DNA from: a virus
Lineage: Duplodnaviria > Caudoviricetes
Virus record (IMG/VR): IMGVR_UViG_3300048574_000241
Location: 1-41,129 of that record
DNA length: 41,129 nt
Direction: 5' to 3' (one strand)
Each line of letters begins with the position of its first letter. Positions within the stretch are counted from its first letter, which is position 1. Made by a program: the position numbers and the translations under genes. Below the pieces are notes generated by a model that saw only the letters and a list, made by a program, of their open reading frames with translations, searched no databases and had not been told where the DNA came from. Below, in pieces: positions 1,137 through 23,931 of this stretch.

Positions 1137-1949
1137 CTACTTCCTCCCTCGATCGGTGATGATCAGCTCCCGTGCTTTCCGCGCCTTGCCGACGCCGACG
1201 GTATAGGTCACGCCCACGGGCTTCATGGTGAAGCCGGCGAACGCCTTGCGGATGGCCGGAACGTCATTGATGGACAGGATGAAGCGGCCTTGAAGGCCCC
1301 TTAAAGCCTCCGCCATGCGCTCGAAATCGGCCCGGGAGAAGCCGTCGCCATAGTCCTTCTCGGAGCCCCAATACGGCGGATCGAGATAGAACAGCGTGCC
1401 CGGTCGGTCGTAGCGCCGCAGGAAGTCGCTCCAGTCCAGGCTCTCGATCACCACGCCCGCCAGCCGCTCGTGCAACTCCTCCAGCATCGGAATGATCTTG
1501 GTGACATCGAACCGGCTGGAGAGTGCCGGGCTGACGCCGAAGGTCCGGCCGGCGACCTTGCCTCCGAAGGCGAGCCGCTGGACGTAGAGGAATCGCGCCG
1601 CGCGCTCCAGGTCGGTCAGCGTGGCCGGATCGGTCGCCATCAGCCGCTCGAACTCGCGGCGCGAGGCGACCTGCCAGCGCAGCATCTCGACGAAGGCAAG
1701 ATAGTGCCGCTGCAGCACCCGGAAGAAGGTCGCCACGTCGCCGGAGCGATCGTTGATGACCTCGGCCGAGGCGGCCTCACGGCGGCGGAAAAACACCCCG
1801 CCCATGCCGACAAAAACCTCCGCATAGGCTTCGTGGGGAATGCGCTCGATCTGCGCGATCACCGCCTTGGCGAGCACGCGCTTGCCGCCGATATAGCCGG
1901 CGGCAGGCTTCAGCGCCGCCACCGGCCTGTAGGTAACTCCTTCAACCAT
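1137..1949 (-). CDS. DNA adenine methyltransferase, D12/Dam family
   Basis: Motifs YIGGK, EVFVGMGGVFF, EVIND and FYLDPPY. Start chosen at ATG 1949; the ORF is open up to 2141. Confidence 0.92.
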   Translation of the reverse strand: MVEGVTYRPVAALKPAAGYIGGKRVLAKAVIAQIERIPHEAYAEVFVGMGGVFFRRREAASAEVINDRSGDVATFFRVLQRHYLAFVEMLRWQVASRREFERLMATDPATLTDLERAARFLYVQRLAFGGKVAGRTFGVSPALSSRFDVTKIIPMLEELHERLAGVVIESLDWSDFLRRYDRPGTLFYLDPPYWGSEKDYGDGFSRADFERMAEALRGLQGRFILSINDVPAIRKAFAGFTMKPVGVTYTVGVGKARKARELIITDRGRK

Positions 1950-2137
1950 CTTTTCTTCCGCGCCCAAATCAGGCCCTCTCACCGTGCTGTGCAGGCTCTG
2001 TGCAGCGGCGGCGGGACGGCGATCAGGGCTTCCTTCGTCGTGCGGGTCACGCTTCCATACGAGGCCCGTGGCTGCAGCGTTGACGCGCTGCACCCCCGCC
2101 ACCGGCGACGGCGCGGGGAATCGGTCGAGGCCGGCCA

Positions 2138-2338
2138 TCACGAGGCCGCCTGATTGATCAGCCGCCGCGCCAGCTCGGGGTCAACGGCCGTGATGGCCGC
2201 GAGCGCGGCGGACTGCATGGACGGGCAGACGCTCGGCGAATTCACGCACGGGCATTTGGCTCCATAGACCCGGTGGCAGCACGCCATGGCCGCGATCTCC
2301 AGCGGGGTCTTTTCAACCGGCTTTGAAGGCTTCTTCAT
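2138..2338 (-). CDS. Small Cys-rich hypothetical protein
   Basis: ATGA overlap with the gpD stop; MKKPSKP...ACCHRVYGAKCPCVNSPSVCP. Confidence 0.6.
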   Translation of the reverse strand: MKKPSKPVEKTPLEIAAMACCHRVYGAKCPCVNSPSVCPSMQSAALAAITAVDPELARRLINQAAS

Positions 2339-19197: not shown

Positions 19198-19683
19198 TCA
19201 GGCGACGTTGGCCGCCAGCTCCTTTTTGAAGTCGTCTTCGGAAATGCCGTGCTGGGCACAGAGCGCCTTTTGCGCGGCGGTGAGTTCGCCCGGCTTGTCG
19301 CCGGGCGCGATCCTGTCGAACCCGCTCGCATCGGTGAGATTCGGCAGCGTCTTGAGCAAAGCTTCAACCTGCGCGAGGCCGCCGTCCTGGCGGCAGATGG
19401 CGAGGTAGTGGTCCCGCGAGGCCGGCGCGATCTTGCCGTCCTTGACGCCCTGATCGACCAAGGCGACGGCGCTGGCGATCTGGGCCTGCTTGCCCTGGTC
19501 GGCCAGCTTCTGCTCGGCCGTGGTGGCGCGGTTGAGCGCGGCGTCCAGGTCGGCTTTCGGCACGAACTTGTTCGGGTCGGGCCGGTCGAGACTTGAGCGC
19601 ATCGAATTGATGGCGGTGATGACGTCGGCGTCGGTCGCGGTTGCGGCGATGCCGAGAGCGGCAGCGATGGCTGCACGATCCAT
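19198..19683 (-). CDS. Nested scaffold protein (Mu gpZ-like) from an internal in-frame start
   Basis: GGAG precedes in-frame ATG 19683 (MDRAAIAAALG...); matches the Mu I/Z arrangement. Confidence 0.6.
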   Translation of the reverse strand: MDRAAIAAALGIAATATDADVITAINSMRSSLDRPDPNKFVPKADLDAALNRATTAEQKLADQGKQAQIASAVALVDQGVKDGKIAPASRDHYLAICRQDGGLAQVEALLKTLPNLTDASGFDRIAPGDKPGELTAAQKALCAQHGISEDDFKKELAANVA

Positions 19684-20154
19684 GTCGGTCTCCAGTGTTT
19701 GGTTGTTAAGTGATGGCAGGTCGAGGTTGGGCTTGTTGGTGAGCCCGACAGAGAGCAGCCGCGTGATGCGGCCGTTGTCCTTCCGGTGAAGGAAAGCTGG
19801 CGAGATGTAGCGATAGGCCTTGCCGGCCACGAGCGCGGCCCCGTGCTCGGTCCACTCGACGTCGGCGATCAGCTCGCCGTTGAGCGCGGTGAGCTTCTTG
19901 ATCCAGCCCTGCGCCGGCGCGGGTTCGCCCTTCGGGCCGCGCAATTCGGTTGCGTGCTCGATGTCGATCGGCACGTCGATGTTGCCGGCGGTGAAGTCGG
20001 CGACGATCCCGTCCGGCTGATCGTTGAGGAAAGCCCGGCCGTCGCGCCCCCGGTTGGTCCCCGGCCGGAGCAGGACGAGCTGGGACGGCACCGCGCCCTC
20101 GGCGTTGAGGGCCAGGGAGAAGAAAAAGCTGGCGAGGGAGGACGGCTGCGTCAT
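19198..20154 (-). CDS. Prohead protease, Mu gpI family (start 20154 or 20163)
   Basis: GRDGR, IDIEHA, APAQGWI, VEWT, YRYISPAF, GLTNKPNL. Confidence 0.93.
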   Translation of the reverse strand: MTQPSSLASFFFSLALNAEGAVPSQLVLLRPGTNRGRDGRAFLNDQPDGIVADFTAGNIDVPIDIEHATELRGPKGEPAPAQGWIKKLTALNGELIADVEWTEHGAALVAGKAYRYISPAFLHRKDNGRITRLLSVGLTNKPNLDLPSLNNQTLETDMDRAAIAAALGIAATATDADVITAINSMRSSLDRPDPNKFVPKADLDAALNRATTAEQKLADQGKQAQIASAVALVDQGVKDGKIAPASRDHYLAICRQDGGLAQVEALLKTLPNLTDASGFDRIAPGDKPGELTAAQKALCAQHGISEDDFKKELAANVA

Positions 20155-20190
20155 GCCGGCCATATCAGGCGCGGCGGCCGGCTTTCGTAA

Positions 20191-20208
20191 CTCTGACAGG
20201 TGTCAGAG
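20191..20208. promoter_or_regulatory. Palindromic late-activator-type box upstream of the protease gene
   Basis: CTCTGACAGGTGTCAGAG, identical to 8519-8536; position equivalent to Mu PI. Confidence 0.8.
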
Positions 20209-20405
20209 CGACCCGAAATGCAGCCCGGACACCATGCCTGCCGGCGGCCGATCTTGGCAAGCCCCTGTCAGGGGGGCGGGATCGACGGGGCGGAGGGCTG
20301 TCAGGGAGGCGCGTTCAAGGGGTTTTCAAGCCCGCCCGGGCCGATGACGGGGCGTCCGGCACCCGGTGGACCGGCCGGGGGGCAAAATGGGCTGTGTGGC
20401 CGATT

Positions 20406-20433
20406 TTGAATTTTCGGGAAAATGGCCTATTTT
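20406..20433 (+). promoter_or_regulatory. Candidate sigma70-like promoter convergent on the MuF gene
   Basis: TTGAAT-16 nt-TATTTT in an AT-rich patch within otherwise GC-rich DNA. Confidence 0.45.
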
Positions 20434-20435
20434 GA

Positions 20436-20506
20436 GGGTGCCTGAGCCATCCGCTTACCGGGTTTCACCCCGCGGGGACATAGCGACCCCCCAGGCGTTT
20501 AATTTT
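20436..20506 (+). ncRNA. Candidate small structured RNA abutting the MuF-toxin stop codon
   Basis: Closing stem GCCTG(20440-44)/CAGGC(20492-96) encloses two hairpins and is followed by GTTTAATTTT. Folded by eye only. Confidence 0.4.
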
Positions 20507-21692
20507 CCCCCTCGTCGTGACGTCTTTGGGCCTGACGCCGGATTCGGGCGATGTCGTCGGCCGTGATCCGGTGGAACGTCGTGACGTAGAGCGCATCACC
20601 GGCGCCGGTGCGCTTGACGACGAGGTGCCAGGGGCGACCATCGAGGGTGCCGACGAAGTTGGTGATGCGCCCGGCCTCGATCCGCTCCGCCGTTCGCAGG
20701 AAGTCCGGCAGCAACTCATAGTGCCGACCGATCACTTCAGGATGTTTGGCAAGCTGCTTGATCGCGGTCTCGGTCGAGAGCAACGCGACGGATGAAGCCG
20801 CGCCTGCTGGCGGTTCGGCAAGAGTTGCAACGGGCAAGGCAATGCGCTTCGCCAGCTTCCCGGCAATCAGTTTGGCGAATTCCGCCGACAGCACGACGGT
20901 CTCCACCGCGACTGCGCGCAACATCGGGTCCTCGATGCGGCCGATCTTGTCGGCGAGGACGCGCGCCAAACCGACACTGCGGCTCTTGCCCGGATTGGTG
21001 TGCCAGCCTGGATCGATACCCACCGGCACCTCGACACGCTCACCGGTGCGCCGGTTCTCGAAAATGCGAGTCCGCATCACGGGATCGGGCGAGACGCCGC
21101 CCAGGCGCTTGGCCTCGGCGCGGCCGACCTGCCGCACCGCGCACTGGCAGCCCCAGCCATTCGGCGGGAAATGGGTCGCCCAGAACTCATGGTCGATCGG
21201 CAACAGCGTGCCGACCCATTCGAGATGCTCCTGACGCGGATCAGCCGCGGTGGTCTCGACGTAAAGAAGGTAAGGCAGCACATCCTTGCTGGCCTGGGCG
21301 CGCTCCCATTGACCTGCCGCGCGCGCCGCGCGCATGTTCGACCAGAAGATGTTCTGCAGCCGTCGCGGCGATGAGAAATCGACCGGCTTGCGCGCGCCGC
21401 TGTCCGCGTCCTCGACGGTACGCGGTCCCCACCAGCCCAGTGACGCCAGCTTGGGCTGGAGCTGCGCCCGCCACTCCTCATAGCCGAGCCCGCGCGCGAT
21501 GGCGTCGTCGATGGTGCCGCGAAACGCGGCGAGCACGTCGACGTCGACGGCCTTGGCGACGGTGAAGGCGTGCGCGTGTTCCTGGCCCCACACGTCGAGC
21601 CAGGAGAAGGCGGGAGCCAGCTTCCGGCCGCGGAAATAATCCAGCACGTCGGTCGGCGGCGTCACCTCATGGATGCGGACGGAATCGGGCAT
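20499..21692 (-). CDS. MuF (gp30) head morphogenesis protein with C-terminal BECR/PBECR2-like nuclease domain
   Basis: N-terminal HAHAFTVAK, RRLQNIF, PPNGWGCQC, DPGW..NPG. C-terminal LSTETAIKQLAKHPE...Y..LP...VVKRT...LYVTTFHR. Confidence 0.88.
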   Translation of the reverse strand: MPDSVRIHEVTPPTDVLDYFRGRKLAPAFSWLDVWGQEHAHAFTVAKAVDVDVLAAFRGTIDDAIARGLGYEEWRAQLQPKLASLGWWGPRTVEDADSGARKPVDFSSPRRLQNIFWSNMRAARAAGQWERAQASKDVLPYLLYVETTAADPRQEHLEWVGTLLPIDHEFWATHFPPNGWGCQCAVRQVGRAEAKRLGGVSPDPVMRTRIFENRRTGERVEVPVGIDPGWHTNPGKSRSVGLARVLADKIGRIEDPMLRAVAVETVVLSAEFAKLIAGKLAKRIALPVATLAEPPAGAASSVALLSTETAIKQLAKHPEVIGRHYELLPDFLRTAERIEAGRITNFVGTLDGRPWHLVVKRTGAGDALYVTTFHRITADDIARIRRQAQRRHDEGEN

Positions 21693-21709: not shown

Positions 21710-22201
21710 TCATTCCGCACGCCCCGCGAGGATCGCGACGGCATAACTGCGATGTGCATCCTCTAGACGCTTGTGCGTGCGCCAAGCATCGCGTTCTTCT
21801 TGATCGTCAGCATGCCGATCGAACAGATTGCGAGAGACGCAGTGGCGAGCTGCTTGTTGATTATGCCAATTCGCACACTTCCCCCGTTCATCGGCACGGA
21901 TCGCGGCTTCGTCGAGAGGCTCGGGTTCAGAAAGTTGCTGTTCGAGGTCAGCTAGGTCTCTTGCGGAGTGATAGTCCCAAATAACACCGAGCCCACCGCA
22001 TTCGTGGCATCCGCTGCCAGCCTCGCATTTGAACGTCCGGCTGAAGTGGTAGCGCCCTACAGAGTGGCCGTCTTCGGTTTCATGGCAGCCGGTGCACGGC
22101 CGCCACCACGCGGCGGCACCATCTTCGCCAGCCTCCTTTACGACCTCGGCAATGCGGCCTCGGAGTTTTGAATCAAGCTCGACACTGGTGGAGTCAGACA
22201 T
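21710..22201 (-). CDS. Inserted hypothetical protein with CxxC...C...CxxCGG motif
   Basis: AGGAGG upstream; WRPCTGCHETEDG...GSGCHECGGLGVIWD; AT-richer than its neighbours. Confidence 0.75.
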   Translation of the reverse strand: MSDSTSVELDSKLRGRIAEVVKEAGEDGAAAWWRPCTGCHETEDGHSVGRYHFSRTFKCEAGSGCHECGGLGVIWDYHSARDLADLEQQLSEPEPLDEAAIRADERGKCANWHNQQAARHCVSRNLFDRHADDQEERDAWRTHKRLEDAHRSYAVAILAGRAE

Positions 22202-22213
22202 CAACTACCTCCT

Positions 22214-22333
22214 TCAAAAGCAAGCGAAATGCATGACACGTCGAGCAATGAATCCGATGGTCGACAACACGCCGATGATGGCGAACAGGAGCCACAAGCC
22301 GAGGATGATGAAGTCGCGCATGTCTTCGCTCAT
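22214..22333 (-). CDS. 39-aa single-pass membrane peptide (not on the ORF track)
   Basis: MSEDMRDFIILGLWLLFAIIGVLSTIGFIARRVMHFACF; fills the gap between the portal stop and the next ribosome-binding site. Confidence 0.6.
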   Translation of the reverse strand: MSEDMRDFIILGLWLLFAIIGVLSTIGFIARRVMHFACF

Positions 22334-22335
22334 CT

Positions 22336-23931
22336 TCAGCCCTCTCCGACGTCACCGAGGCCGCGCGCGATCGCCGTGGCCTTGGCGAGCTGGCTGGCCA
22401 ACGCGCTTGAATCCATCTTGCGCACCGCTTGCGGCAGCCGCTCGAGCAGTTCCTCGAACGAACCGCATTCCCGCGCCAGCGCGAGCAGCGGGTCCACCAC
22501 GGGCGGCAGCACCTCCTGCCAATCGCCGCAGGCCTCCGCCGCCATGCGGTCGATGTCAGTCAACGCCTGCTGGCTGGCGAGCGCGACGCCATGCACACCG
22601 CCGCAGCCCGGACAGCGCATCCGGTTGATGGCCTTGGCCGCCGGCGGCTGCTCCGCCGCCGCGCGCCCGGCCGAGAGCGGCCGCAGCACGATCTCGTCGG
22701 CATCGGGATCGGAGAAGCCGATGCGGTCGCGCACCTCGGCCTCGCTGACCCGGCCGCCACGGTCGACGAACTCGGTCAGCACCTCCATCGTCGCCTTGAT
22801 GTCCTCGGGCTCGATGACGGGCAATGTGAACAGCGGCATGCCGTTCTTCGGCATCCCGAAATTGTAGAACACGAACGGCTCGATCATGTCGCGCTGGATC
22901 GTCGCCGACAGTTCGTCGGCGTCGGCCGCCACCAGCTCGCGGCGAATCTCCTGATGCTCCTTCGACACCGCGTGGCCGCCGGACACCGCATCGGTCGTGG
23001 TGGTCTGGCCGAGCACCAGCTTCGACATCAGCATGTCGAGGTACTTGCAGAGCTTCTCGAAGGCGTCGGTCGCCTTCGAGCCGCGCGTCTCCAGCAGTTC
23101 GATGATCATGGCCTCGGGGATGATGGCCGCGCCGTCGCTGGCGATGTTCGCCACCGCCCGCAACAGCGCCGACTTGTCCTCCCGCGATGCGCCGGGATGC
23201 CATTTGCCAATGCGCCACGGGATGCCATAGACGTCGAGAAAGTTCATCCAGTCCTTCAGGCTGAATGACTTGAGCATGAACATCCACATCGCCACCCGGG
23301 CGAGGCCGCCGCGGATCGGCTGGCCCGACTTGAGCTTGGGCACGTGGACCACGAACTTCGCGGGCTGCAGCGGCACGCCGTCGATGTTGCCGTCCTCGCG
23401 CAGCCGCAGATGCATGCCGGTGATGCGGTCGAACTGGAACATGCGCGGATCGCGCCACGCGAAGCCGCCGATGCTCCAGCGCGTGGCGCTGGTGGTCCAC
23501 AGCATCTCGACGACGGAATAGCCCTTGGACAGGCCGTCGCACAGATCCACGATGGAGGACCGGAACGCCGGCGTCGCCACCAGCTTGCGCACCGCGTCGG
23601 CGATATCGACGTCCACCTTGTCGGTCGAGGCGGCCTCGATCACCGGCGGGATCGCCCGCAGCGCCAGCTTGCGGGTGGTGATGACGGCGCGGTAGTGCGG
23701 CTCGCGCTCCTCAATCTCCTCGGCGAGGGTGAGGTATTCGCGCGTGTCACCGCCGGGCTCGGCCGATTGCCGCAGCACGCGCGCCAGGCGCTCCGGCGTC
23801 AGGCCGGAGGCGACCGGCTCGTTCCAGATGGAGCGCACCCCGGTCATGGTCGGCTCGGCGACGGGACGGGTCTCGGGCTTTTTCGGCAGCGGCACGCCGT
23901 ACTGGTCGGTAAGGCTGTAGGTTTCGGTCAT
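22336..23931 (-). CDS. Portal protein, Mu gp29 (DUF935)
   Basis: GLTPERLARVLR, GYSVVE..W, DW..F...YGIP.RIGK, SKLVLGQT.TT. Confidence 0.95.
   Translation of the reverse strand: MTETYSLTDQYGVPLPKKPETRPVAEPTMTGVRSIWNEPVASGLTPERLARVLRQSAEPGGDTREYLTLAEEIEEREPHYRAVITTRKLALRAIPPVIEAASTDKVDVDIADAVRKLVATPAFRSSIVDLCDGLSKGYSVVEMLWTTSATRWSIGGFAWRDPRMFQFDRITGMHLRLREDGNIDGVPLQPAKFVVHVPKLKSGQPIRGGLARVAMWMFMLKSFSLKDWMNFLDVYGIPWRIGKWHPGASREDKSALLRAVANIASDGAAIIPEAMIIELLETRGSKATDAFEKLCKYLDMLMSKLVLGQTTTTDAVSGGHAVSKEHQEIRRELVAADADELSATIQRDMIEPFVFYNFGMPKNGMPLFTLPVIEPEDIKATMEVLTEFVDRGGRVSEAEVRDRIGFSDPDADEIVLRPLSAGRAAAEQPPAAKAINRMRCPGCGGVHGVALASQQALTDIDRMAAEACGDWQEVLPPVVDPLLALARECGSFEELLERLPQAVRKMDSSALASQLAKATAIARGLGDVGEG

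Follow-up and report, generated by a model that had tools for sequence, protein, structure and literature searches.

What spares the host of a phage whose minor head protein appears to end in an RNase, when no immunity gene follows that protein? The question is raised by the virus record IMGVR_UViG_3300048574_000241 (Duplodnaviria; Caudoviricetes), the 41,129-nt stretch of DNA that was analyzed here at its full length and is called the window.

The MuF gene and its phage context

The gene set of the window is that of a Mu-like phage and comprises a transposase, a repressor-like peptidase S24, a terminase, portal, I protease, major head and tail genes. The MuF gene (Mu gp30-like minor head protein, 397 aa; 20499..21692, minus strand) lies downstream of the portal gene, located by Pfam search at 22336-23931, and is followed on its own strand by a Mu-like I protease gene (19198..20163, minus strand; PF10123, E 3.5e-52). 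The MuF head domain was assigned by PF04233 to aa 60-186 (21135..21515, minus strand; E 4.8e-14, 53.5 bits versus a cut-off of 29.6), and with the protein ending at aa 397 the first-pass annotation of this DNA had correctly described MuF as running past its head domain into a C-terminal extension. It had also reported that no minus-strand immunity ORF precedes the protease gene, and the ORF list agrees, as no immunity-type ORF is found in the 335 bases between the two genes; the only ORFs near the 3' end of MuF are an 84-aa minus-strand ORF, almost wholly within MuF in another frame, and a 31-aa ORF at 20165-20260. A small same-strand ORF directly downstream of MuF, as expected for protein immunity, is thus missing, and the slot is occupied by a predicted RNA and its promoter.

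Some further features of the window were recorded. Between portal and MuF sits an inserted 164-aa Cys-rich ORF without a Pfam family (21710-22204, minus strand), accompanied by a 39-aa ORF (22214-22333), and a D12-class adenine methyltransferase gene (1137-2141, minus strand) lies near the genome end. Upstream of the I protease gene a TTGAA motif is repeated at 20313-20329 (minus strand), as a candidate activator site of a late promoter. With a strict pattern, such a motif was detected after MuF in 20 of 113 relatives in all, namely in 16 of the 101 loci positive for the RNA described below and in 4 of the 12 negative ones.

The C-terminal domain of MuF

A cluster-representative search with the last 123 residues of MuF (aa 275-397; 20502..20870, minus strand) yielded 119 relatives, and a structure model of this domain, based on 63 aligned sequences, reached a pLDDT of 92.6. 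Foldseek with the model returned BrnT as the top match (E 2.5e-3), followed by a CdiA toxin and RelE-type toxins. A wide fold search likewise found BrnT (Z 8.0, rmsd 3.1, 75 aligned), a Salmonella toxin-antitoxin entry (Z 6.1), CdiA-CT of NC101 (Z 5.6) and colicin D (Z 5.5, rmsd 2.9, 80 aligned), to be read with the warning of the tool that Z values up to 8, the level of the domain's best match, can reflect a common arrangement. His317 at the end of the first helix and Thr372 on the last strand are candidate active-site residues and fit the pattern of a His and a strand-4 Ser/Thr given for PBECR domains (Iyer 2017). PBECR domains fused to MuF are characterized in that source by the BECR fold with a His in the first helix and a Ser/Thr on strand 4, their activity being predicted (PMC5512222). 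In the model, both the fold and the residue pattern of the MuF C-terminal domain agree with a BECR assignment.

The Pfam search of the window domain matched no family, PBECR3 (PF18812) included, and PBECR3 matched 6 of the 63 domain-family members weakly. Since the family profile matches the tail of the MuF of phage SuMu (E 7.5e-16), which is itself PBECR3 above the cut-off (64.6 bits vs 30), the window domain can be regarded as distantly related to PBECR3, its site looking intact. Sequence search of the PDB with the domain profile gave chance matches only, and the long-type domain found no match in the cultured phages or E. coli genomes searched. The first-pass reading of the extension as a BECR RNase is thereby supported by the predicted fold (BrnT, CdiA-CT, colicin D) and not by any Pfam match of the window domain, and from the model and the profile we infer a predicted RNase activity. 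Beside these results, a protein was met in which the same BECR domain is joined to a Mu portal protein (P0032); in scans for portal-fused or non-Mu MuF contexts, neither a fusion of portal and BECR domain nor a non-Mu head carrying this domain was recovered.

Position, promoter and strand of the RNA element

Covariation among relatives predicts a gene for a tRNA-shaped small RNA of 61 nt on the plus strand (20438..20498), tail-to-tail with MuF. Its predicted promoter consists of a -35 element TTGAAT (20406..20411, plus strand), the position of which is conserved among relatives, and, after a 16-nt spacer, a -10 element TATTTT (20428..20433, plus strand) that is also supported by the relatives. 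A closing, acceptor-like stem of 7 bp is formed by 20438..20444 and 20492..20498; enclosed by it on the same strand are CGCT in a D-loop-like position (20452..20455), a variable hairpin in the anticodon-arm position whose loop is not conserved (20459..20472, helix 3 of the alignment), and a T-arm-like hairpin stacked on the closing stem (20474..20491, helix 4), with AGCG at 20482-20485 in its loop. A U-rich tail (20499..20506, plus strand) runs over the MuF stop codon and is a possible termination or processing site. The motifs quoted in the first-pass annotation were all located where it had placed them: GCCTG at 20440-20444 with CAGGC at 20492-20496, GGGG-ACATAGCGA-CCCC at 20474-20491, and the MuF stop at 20499-20501.

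Taken alone, the window element folds no better than its shuffles (z-scores -0.33 to +0.52). A consensus promoter scan gave 0 sites, being too strict for the predicted RNA promoter, and neither standard nor Rho-independent terminators were found in 20100-20800. It is the comparison among relatives, and not the window sequence by itself, that lifts the element beyond chance.

Regarding the promoter, 72 copies were placed by covariance models blind to it, and in 49 of them a sigma-70-like site lies upstream, its end 1-9 nt from the element, compared to 1-6 of 72 in each of seven shifted windows; the convergent promoter claimed in the first-pass annotation therefore stands at the expected distance in most of these copies. 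In the closing stems of 92 parsed copies, G-U pairs outnumbered A-C by 19 to 1, with a parser that slightly favors G-U; not included here are 9 RNA-positive loci in which the element was displaced or parsed wrongly. Moreover, at the 110 family loci the joint descriptor passed 96 times opposite to MuF and 8 times on the MuF strand, against 12 of 350 other gene ends. Promoter distance, G-U polarity and the strand bias of the descriptor together indicate that the RNA reads on the plus strand of the window, with a start near 20438-20440. The tails of the 92 copies are 79% pyrimidine and 39% T, and CCA is present in 2 of 92. A descriptor lacking the promoter term could not tell real sites from false ones and was set aside.

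Structure of the RNA

The 30 window-type copies were aligned from sequence only, and 82% of cells pair, with two-sided changes in 18 of 23 pairs; none of 500 shuffles was as good, a control that kinship can inflate, and slid controls drop to 40-47% paired. Pairing is strongest in the closing stem (91.5% of cells, two-sided changes in 8 of 9 pairs; 208 of 210 cells for columns 3-9 versus 70-76), followed by the stacked hairpin (89%), in which the GGGG/CCCC arm, columns 49-52 versus 66-69, pairs in 118 of 120 cells, and RNAalifold recovered the same stems unprompted. A conserved structure behind MuF, as the first-pass annotation had supposed, is thus borne out by covarying stems; the three-way junction that it had drawn is not. 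Its CCGC..GCGG and GGGG arms cannot both form, as G20474-G20475 are common to both, and the CCGC/GCGG arm, 59.8% paired among relatives, is unlikely in the window RNA. More likely, CGCT at 20452-20455 pairs with AGCG at 20482-20485 in the loop of the GGGG arm (helix 2, 62% paired, weaker than the stems), which revises the shape to a tRNA-like one.

In a long subtype, represented by 23 copies, the loop of the extra arm pairs with the loop of the stacked hairpin in 100% of cells, with two-sided changes in 4 of 5 pairs. When loops were swapped between loci, none of 10000 permutations reached the own-partner score for the 25 long copies tested, whereas 85 of 10000 did so for 59 short ones, and the loop-loop pairing predicted for the short, window-type RNAs is therefore moderately supported. 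The closing stem has 7 bp or more and carries a stacked arm of 4-6 bp, with no spacer between them in 90 of 92 copies as read by a parser that favors zero spacer. With closing stem, stacked arm, variable arm and loop-loop contact, the predicted shape of the RNA is tRNA-like. The 7-bp stem with its stacked 4-6-bp arm resembles the portion of tRNA recognized by processing enzymes. At the same place, three members of another BECR subfamily (L083, L167, L173) show a D-loop-like GG and T-loops that we take to be canonical by the tRNA consensus, and phage SuMu holds a T-loop-like sequence inside the loop-pairing form of the RNA. Common descent of all RNA subtypes is plausible.

ARAGORN called 0 of 80 loci as tRNA at the position of the element, and at gathering score Rfam 15 matched no family in the window or in sets of 20, 16 and 8 loci. 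The mimicry would be one of shape only, since CCA is absent and the loop in the anticodon position varies among copies. A ribozyme of the HDV-like or hammerhead kind was considered by eye and set aside, as the outermost strands pair with each other and no Rfam family matched. A resemblance between the T-like arm and the 16S 3' end was likewise not retained, given that its loop lacks conservation. Additional elements were noted on the way: near-tRNA elements with T-loops, missed by ARAGORN and Rfam, lie behind MuF_C-like domains (L083:3230-3302, L167:2841-2921, L173:2828-2902), and further RNA subtypes after the MuF stop (L143, L151, L154, L174, L191) are matched by neither covariance model and share the closing stem and stacked arm.

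Association of the RNA with the intact domain

From 220 collected MuF loci, 113 distinct loci of the domain family with at least 190 nt downstream were tabulated, four low-scoring relatives (L005, L009, L035, L078) being entered by hand and L140 being excluded since other domains follow. The RNA was called in 101 of the 113, by model R1 in 50 loci, by R2 in 26 (training sequences included) and by the descriptor alone in 25; six R1 matches had E values of 0.02-0.62, and all of them also passed the descriptor. Descriptor matches at L178 and L179 were rejected by eye, as they are located in the next gene. The domain is eroded in 11 of the 12 RNA-less loci, and the His and Ser/Thr pair is present in 90 of 101 RNA-positive versus 1 of 12 RNA-negative loci, the His being counted anywhere in the helix window. 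On a head-domain tree built with FastTree the eroded, RNA-less state (the 11 loci plus phage B23) corresponds to 9 changes, all forced by strong branches. An intact domain without the RNA was found in 1 of 102 cases; L048 combines an intact-looking domain with a truncated RNA, and L089 has an assembly gap.

The RNA is kept despite inserted genes in L081 (450 nt away) and L079 (1.4 kb away), and in L130 and L096 it is retained beside a recently broken domain. The cargo ORFs between RNA and MuF in the former two loci (L079:2199-3714, DUF6602; L081:3133-3734) lie on the RNA strand and are apparently positioned for the RNA promoter.

Among the 220 loci the C-terminal domains are interchangeable: besides short versions, peptidase-like, ART-like, PBECR2 and MuF_C-like ones occur, the first two being named from a reading of motifs. 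Behind other toxin-like MuF domains the descriptor passed in 0 of 20 loci, and sense-strand ORFs are found there instead; it passed in 1 of 43 short MuFs, 2 of 10 PBECR2 and 5 of 11 MuF_C-like loci, with other folds visible by eye in these last two classes. PBECR2-type MuFs (L122, L135, L138, L170, L190, L325, L326) have a convergent promoter-like site and differently folded RNAs after the stop, possibly separate families. Another observation concerns one genome with at least six Mu-like MuFs (L102, L103, L109-L111, L114), the ART-like tails of which differ C-terminally and are each followed by a different small ORF.

Among cultured phages, POA1180 and SuMu have an intact domain and the RNA (in SuMu by eye), B23 has an eroded domain and no RNA, and Mu has no RNA; in Mu, gene G overlaps the MuF stop, and its domain is described as inactive (PMC5512222). 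In RcapMu and RR1-B, PBECR2-type domains are followed by a structured segment with a convergent promoter-like site. The RcapMu copy, at about 21525-21585 of the RcapMu record on the strand opposite MuF and with a different fold, is absent from the sRNA list published for R. capsulatus SB1003, as far as the available part of this single Ion Torrent study shows. Judged by comparison of the loci, the RNA is a real, new RNA family tied to intact MuF-BECR domains.

Copies in host chromosomes

RNA-first genome searches gave matches in 7 of 151, 2 of 41 and 2 of 151 genomes, the sets overlapping. Six new single matches lay directly behind a MuF-type BECR gene (L331, L333, L334, L336, L343, L346), L336 repeating L061. 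Genome G031 holds four different tandem RNA copies, the fourth at E 0.008, among valS, TolC, DUF2497 and PEBP genes; behind this array (G031:C8:12640-13321, equal to L347:6641-7322) the contig ends with two CRISPR-like repeats and one spacer, and one of the tandem copies is 90% identical to the RNA of prophage locus L080. A single copy in G080 (L335:1501-1675) has a promoter-like site and a downstream terminator-like hairpin, has no phage genes nearby and is flanked by two host genes, a helicase-like and a housekeeping-like ORF, labeled by reading of the ORFs. Neither MuF nor a credible domain match was found in the G031 and G080 assemblies, both of which may be incomplete. In G157, one copy lies behind MuF; the other, probably an orphan as well, follows a host polymerase-like gene where a contig ends.

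Discussion

The reading that we consider probable from these sequence comparisons is that the RNA acts as a protein-binding antitoxin, type III-like in action but not a member of type III. A trans-acting antidote that binds the protein is the simplest account of an asymmetry: the domain almost never occurs without the RNA, while the RNA survives breakage of the domain, displacement and transfer to hosts. The tRNA-shaped RNA would likely bind and block the BECR RNase in place of an immunity protein, possibly by occupying the active site as a non-productive tRNA-like substrate. Without depending on the late genes, its housekeeping-type promoter would supply it in the lysogen as well as shortly after infection. 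MuF itself would be packaged and injected, so that cells with the matching RNA, held or quickly made, would survive and others would be slowed or killed; delivery of MuF toxin domains by the virion is a hypothesis in the literature consulted. Hosts may gather orphan copies of the RNA as borrowed immunity.

An unlikely alternative is that the RNA is a working partner of the toxin: the BECR domain would bind or mature it, and the RNA or the complex would act on the infected cell, e.g., as a tRNA decoy against host anticodon nucleases. Mutual dependence of this kind agrees with the absence of the RNA from every one of the 11 eroded loci, and joint loss of domain and RNA is equally expected under positive cooperation. 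The closing stem and stacked arm resemble the part of tRNA used by processing enzymes, and with no standard terminator the 3' end of the RNA may need cutting. Furthermore, PBECR domains may spare host tRNA and rRNA according to Iyer 2017 (PMC5512222). However, a partner would not be expected to outlive a broken domain, as in L130 and L096, or to occur in host chromosomes lacking the domain; in addition, the intact domain lacks the RNA in just 1 of 102 cases, and the RNA fills the slot that is held by an ORF in other MuF toxins.

Silencing of MuF by the RNA or by its transcription, via antisense pairing or polymerase collision in a type I-like manner that would keep a toxic late gene off in the lysogen, is suggested by the convergent layout, in which the transcript would enter the MuF 3' end, and by elements that overlap the last MuF codons (L016, L020, L040, L053). 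This is improbable: antisense action would do without a conserved tertiary fold, whereas covariation is seen in both the stems and the loop-loop pairs, and the displaced (L079, L081) and orphan copies do not overlap MuF. Still less credence is given to an element that acts on the MuF strand, as a late-mRNA terminator or a stability or processing signal, with the opposite promoter incidental or serving cargo genes. A closed stem could form on both strands, and in L079 and L081 inserted genes do lie downstream of the promoter; against this stand the G-U polarity of the closing stem, the fixed promoter distance, the descriptor passes (96 of 110 antisense vs 8 of 110 sense), the T-loops of L083, L167 and L173, readable on the antisense strand only, and the short MuFs, which are without the element. 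Finally, chance structure in GC-rich DNA or a dead tRNA remnant, as might be read from single-sequence z-scores near 0 and from the silence of ARAGORN and Rfam, is scarcely conceivable given the compensatory changes in 8 of 9 closing-stem pairs, which already contradict it, the descriptor null of 12 of 350 and the tight link to the intact domain.

Returning to the antitoxin reading, it would, if true, explain how MuF-PBECR proteins without an immunity ORF spare their own host, the RNA would be a first immunity factor of its kind for a polymorphic toxin that is delivered, and the BECR fold would join the toxins controlled by RNA antitoxins. Because presence of the RNA marks probably active PBECR domains, the role of MuF extensions becomes testable in a two-plasmid assay. 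More tentatively, and with somewhat more doubt than confidence, one may imagine that widespread phage-delivered polymorphic RNase toxins use tRNA-derived RNA immunity genes, that these RNAs diversified together with the toxins from tRNA-like to minimal knotted forms, and that bacteria stockpile chromosomal arrays of them against virion toxins, once beside CRISPR-like repeats. The orphan arrays would then be an RNA form of acquired immunity against phage-borne toxins.

Comparison with known systems

The window system resembles MuF-PBECR3 (PF18812; PMC5512222) in the MuF fusion, the BECR fold and the His and Ser/Thr residues, with a link to PBECR3 via the SuMu protein; it differs in that the window domain scores on no Pfam model and in that the available text of the PBECR description names no immunity factor or RNA. 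With the MuF polymorphic toxins (PMC5576092, Jamet 2017) it shares the MuF head with an interchangeable C-terminal domain in the head module of a temperate phage, and the Ct_MAD domain of proteobacterial phages described there may overlap the window domain family. The window system can thus be regarded as a MuF polymorphic toxin without a protein immunity gene. A description of an RNA behind MuF or PBECR genes was not found in the literature searched, the scope of which left out most subscription journals; the sources consulted also include PMC3976366, 10.64898/2026.08.28.747851 and PMC5546546.

With tRNA, the RNA has in common the 7-bp closing stem, the directly stacked arm and a loop-loop contact, whereas the window-family RNAs have no conserved anticodon loop or CCA, and Watson-Crick loop pairs replace the elbow in most copies. 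Among bacterial RNAs, Y RNAs are tRNA mimics.

Two systems are alike in pairing a toxin with an RNA. In AbiF/RCd22 of a C. difficile prophage, AbiF is neutralized in cis and in trans by a non-coding RNA that binds it directly, and the combination of prophage toxin and RNA is shared; by contrast, AbiF is an Abi_2/Cas13-related protein with an abiF motif RNA and, in the available text, no head-protein fusion, whereas the window RNA has no Rfam match (10.1101/2025.04.15.648962). The type III systems ToxIN, CptIN and TenpIN (PMC5086642) also combine an RNase toxin with a small, structured RNA, which blocks the toxin through binding as the window RNA would; the type III RNAs are pseudoknotted. Type III systems have upstream tandem repeats, a promoter shared by RNA and toxin and a terminator between the two, none of which is present in the window system, where the RNA is downstream, on the opposite strand, in a single copy and tRNA-shaped, and the toxin is fused to a virion protein. 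The loop-loop contact, strongly supported for the long copies and moderately for the window type, would make a knot whose topology differs from the H-type knots described for type III. The first-pass reading as type III-like is thus retained for the manner in which the RNA would act, by blocking an RNase through binding, and not for the genetic layout, in which the window system follows a plan different from that of type III.
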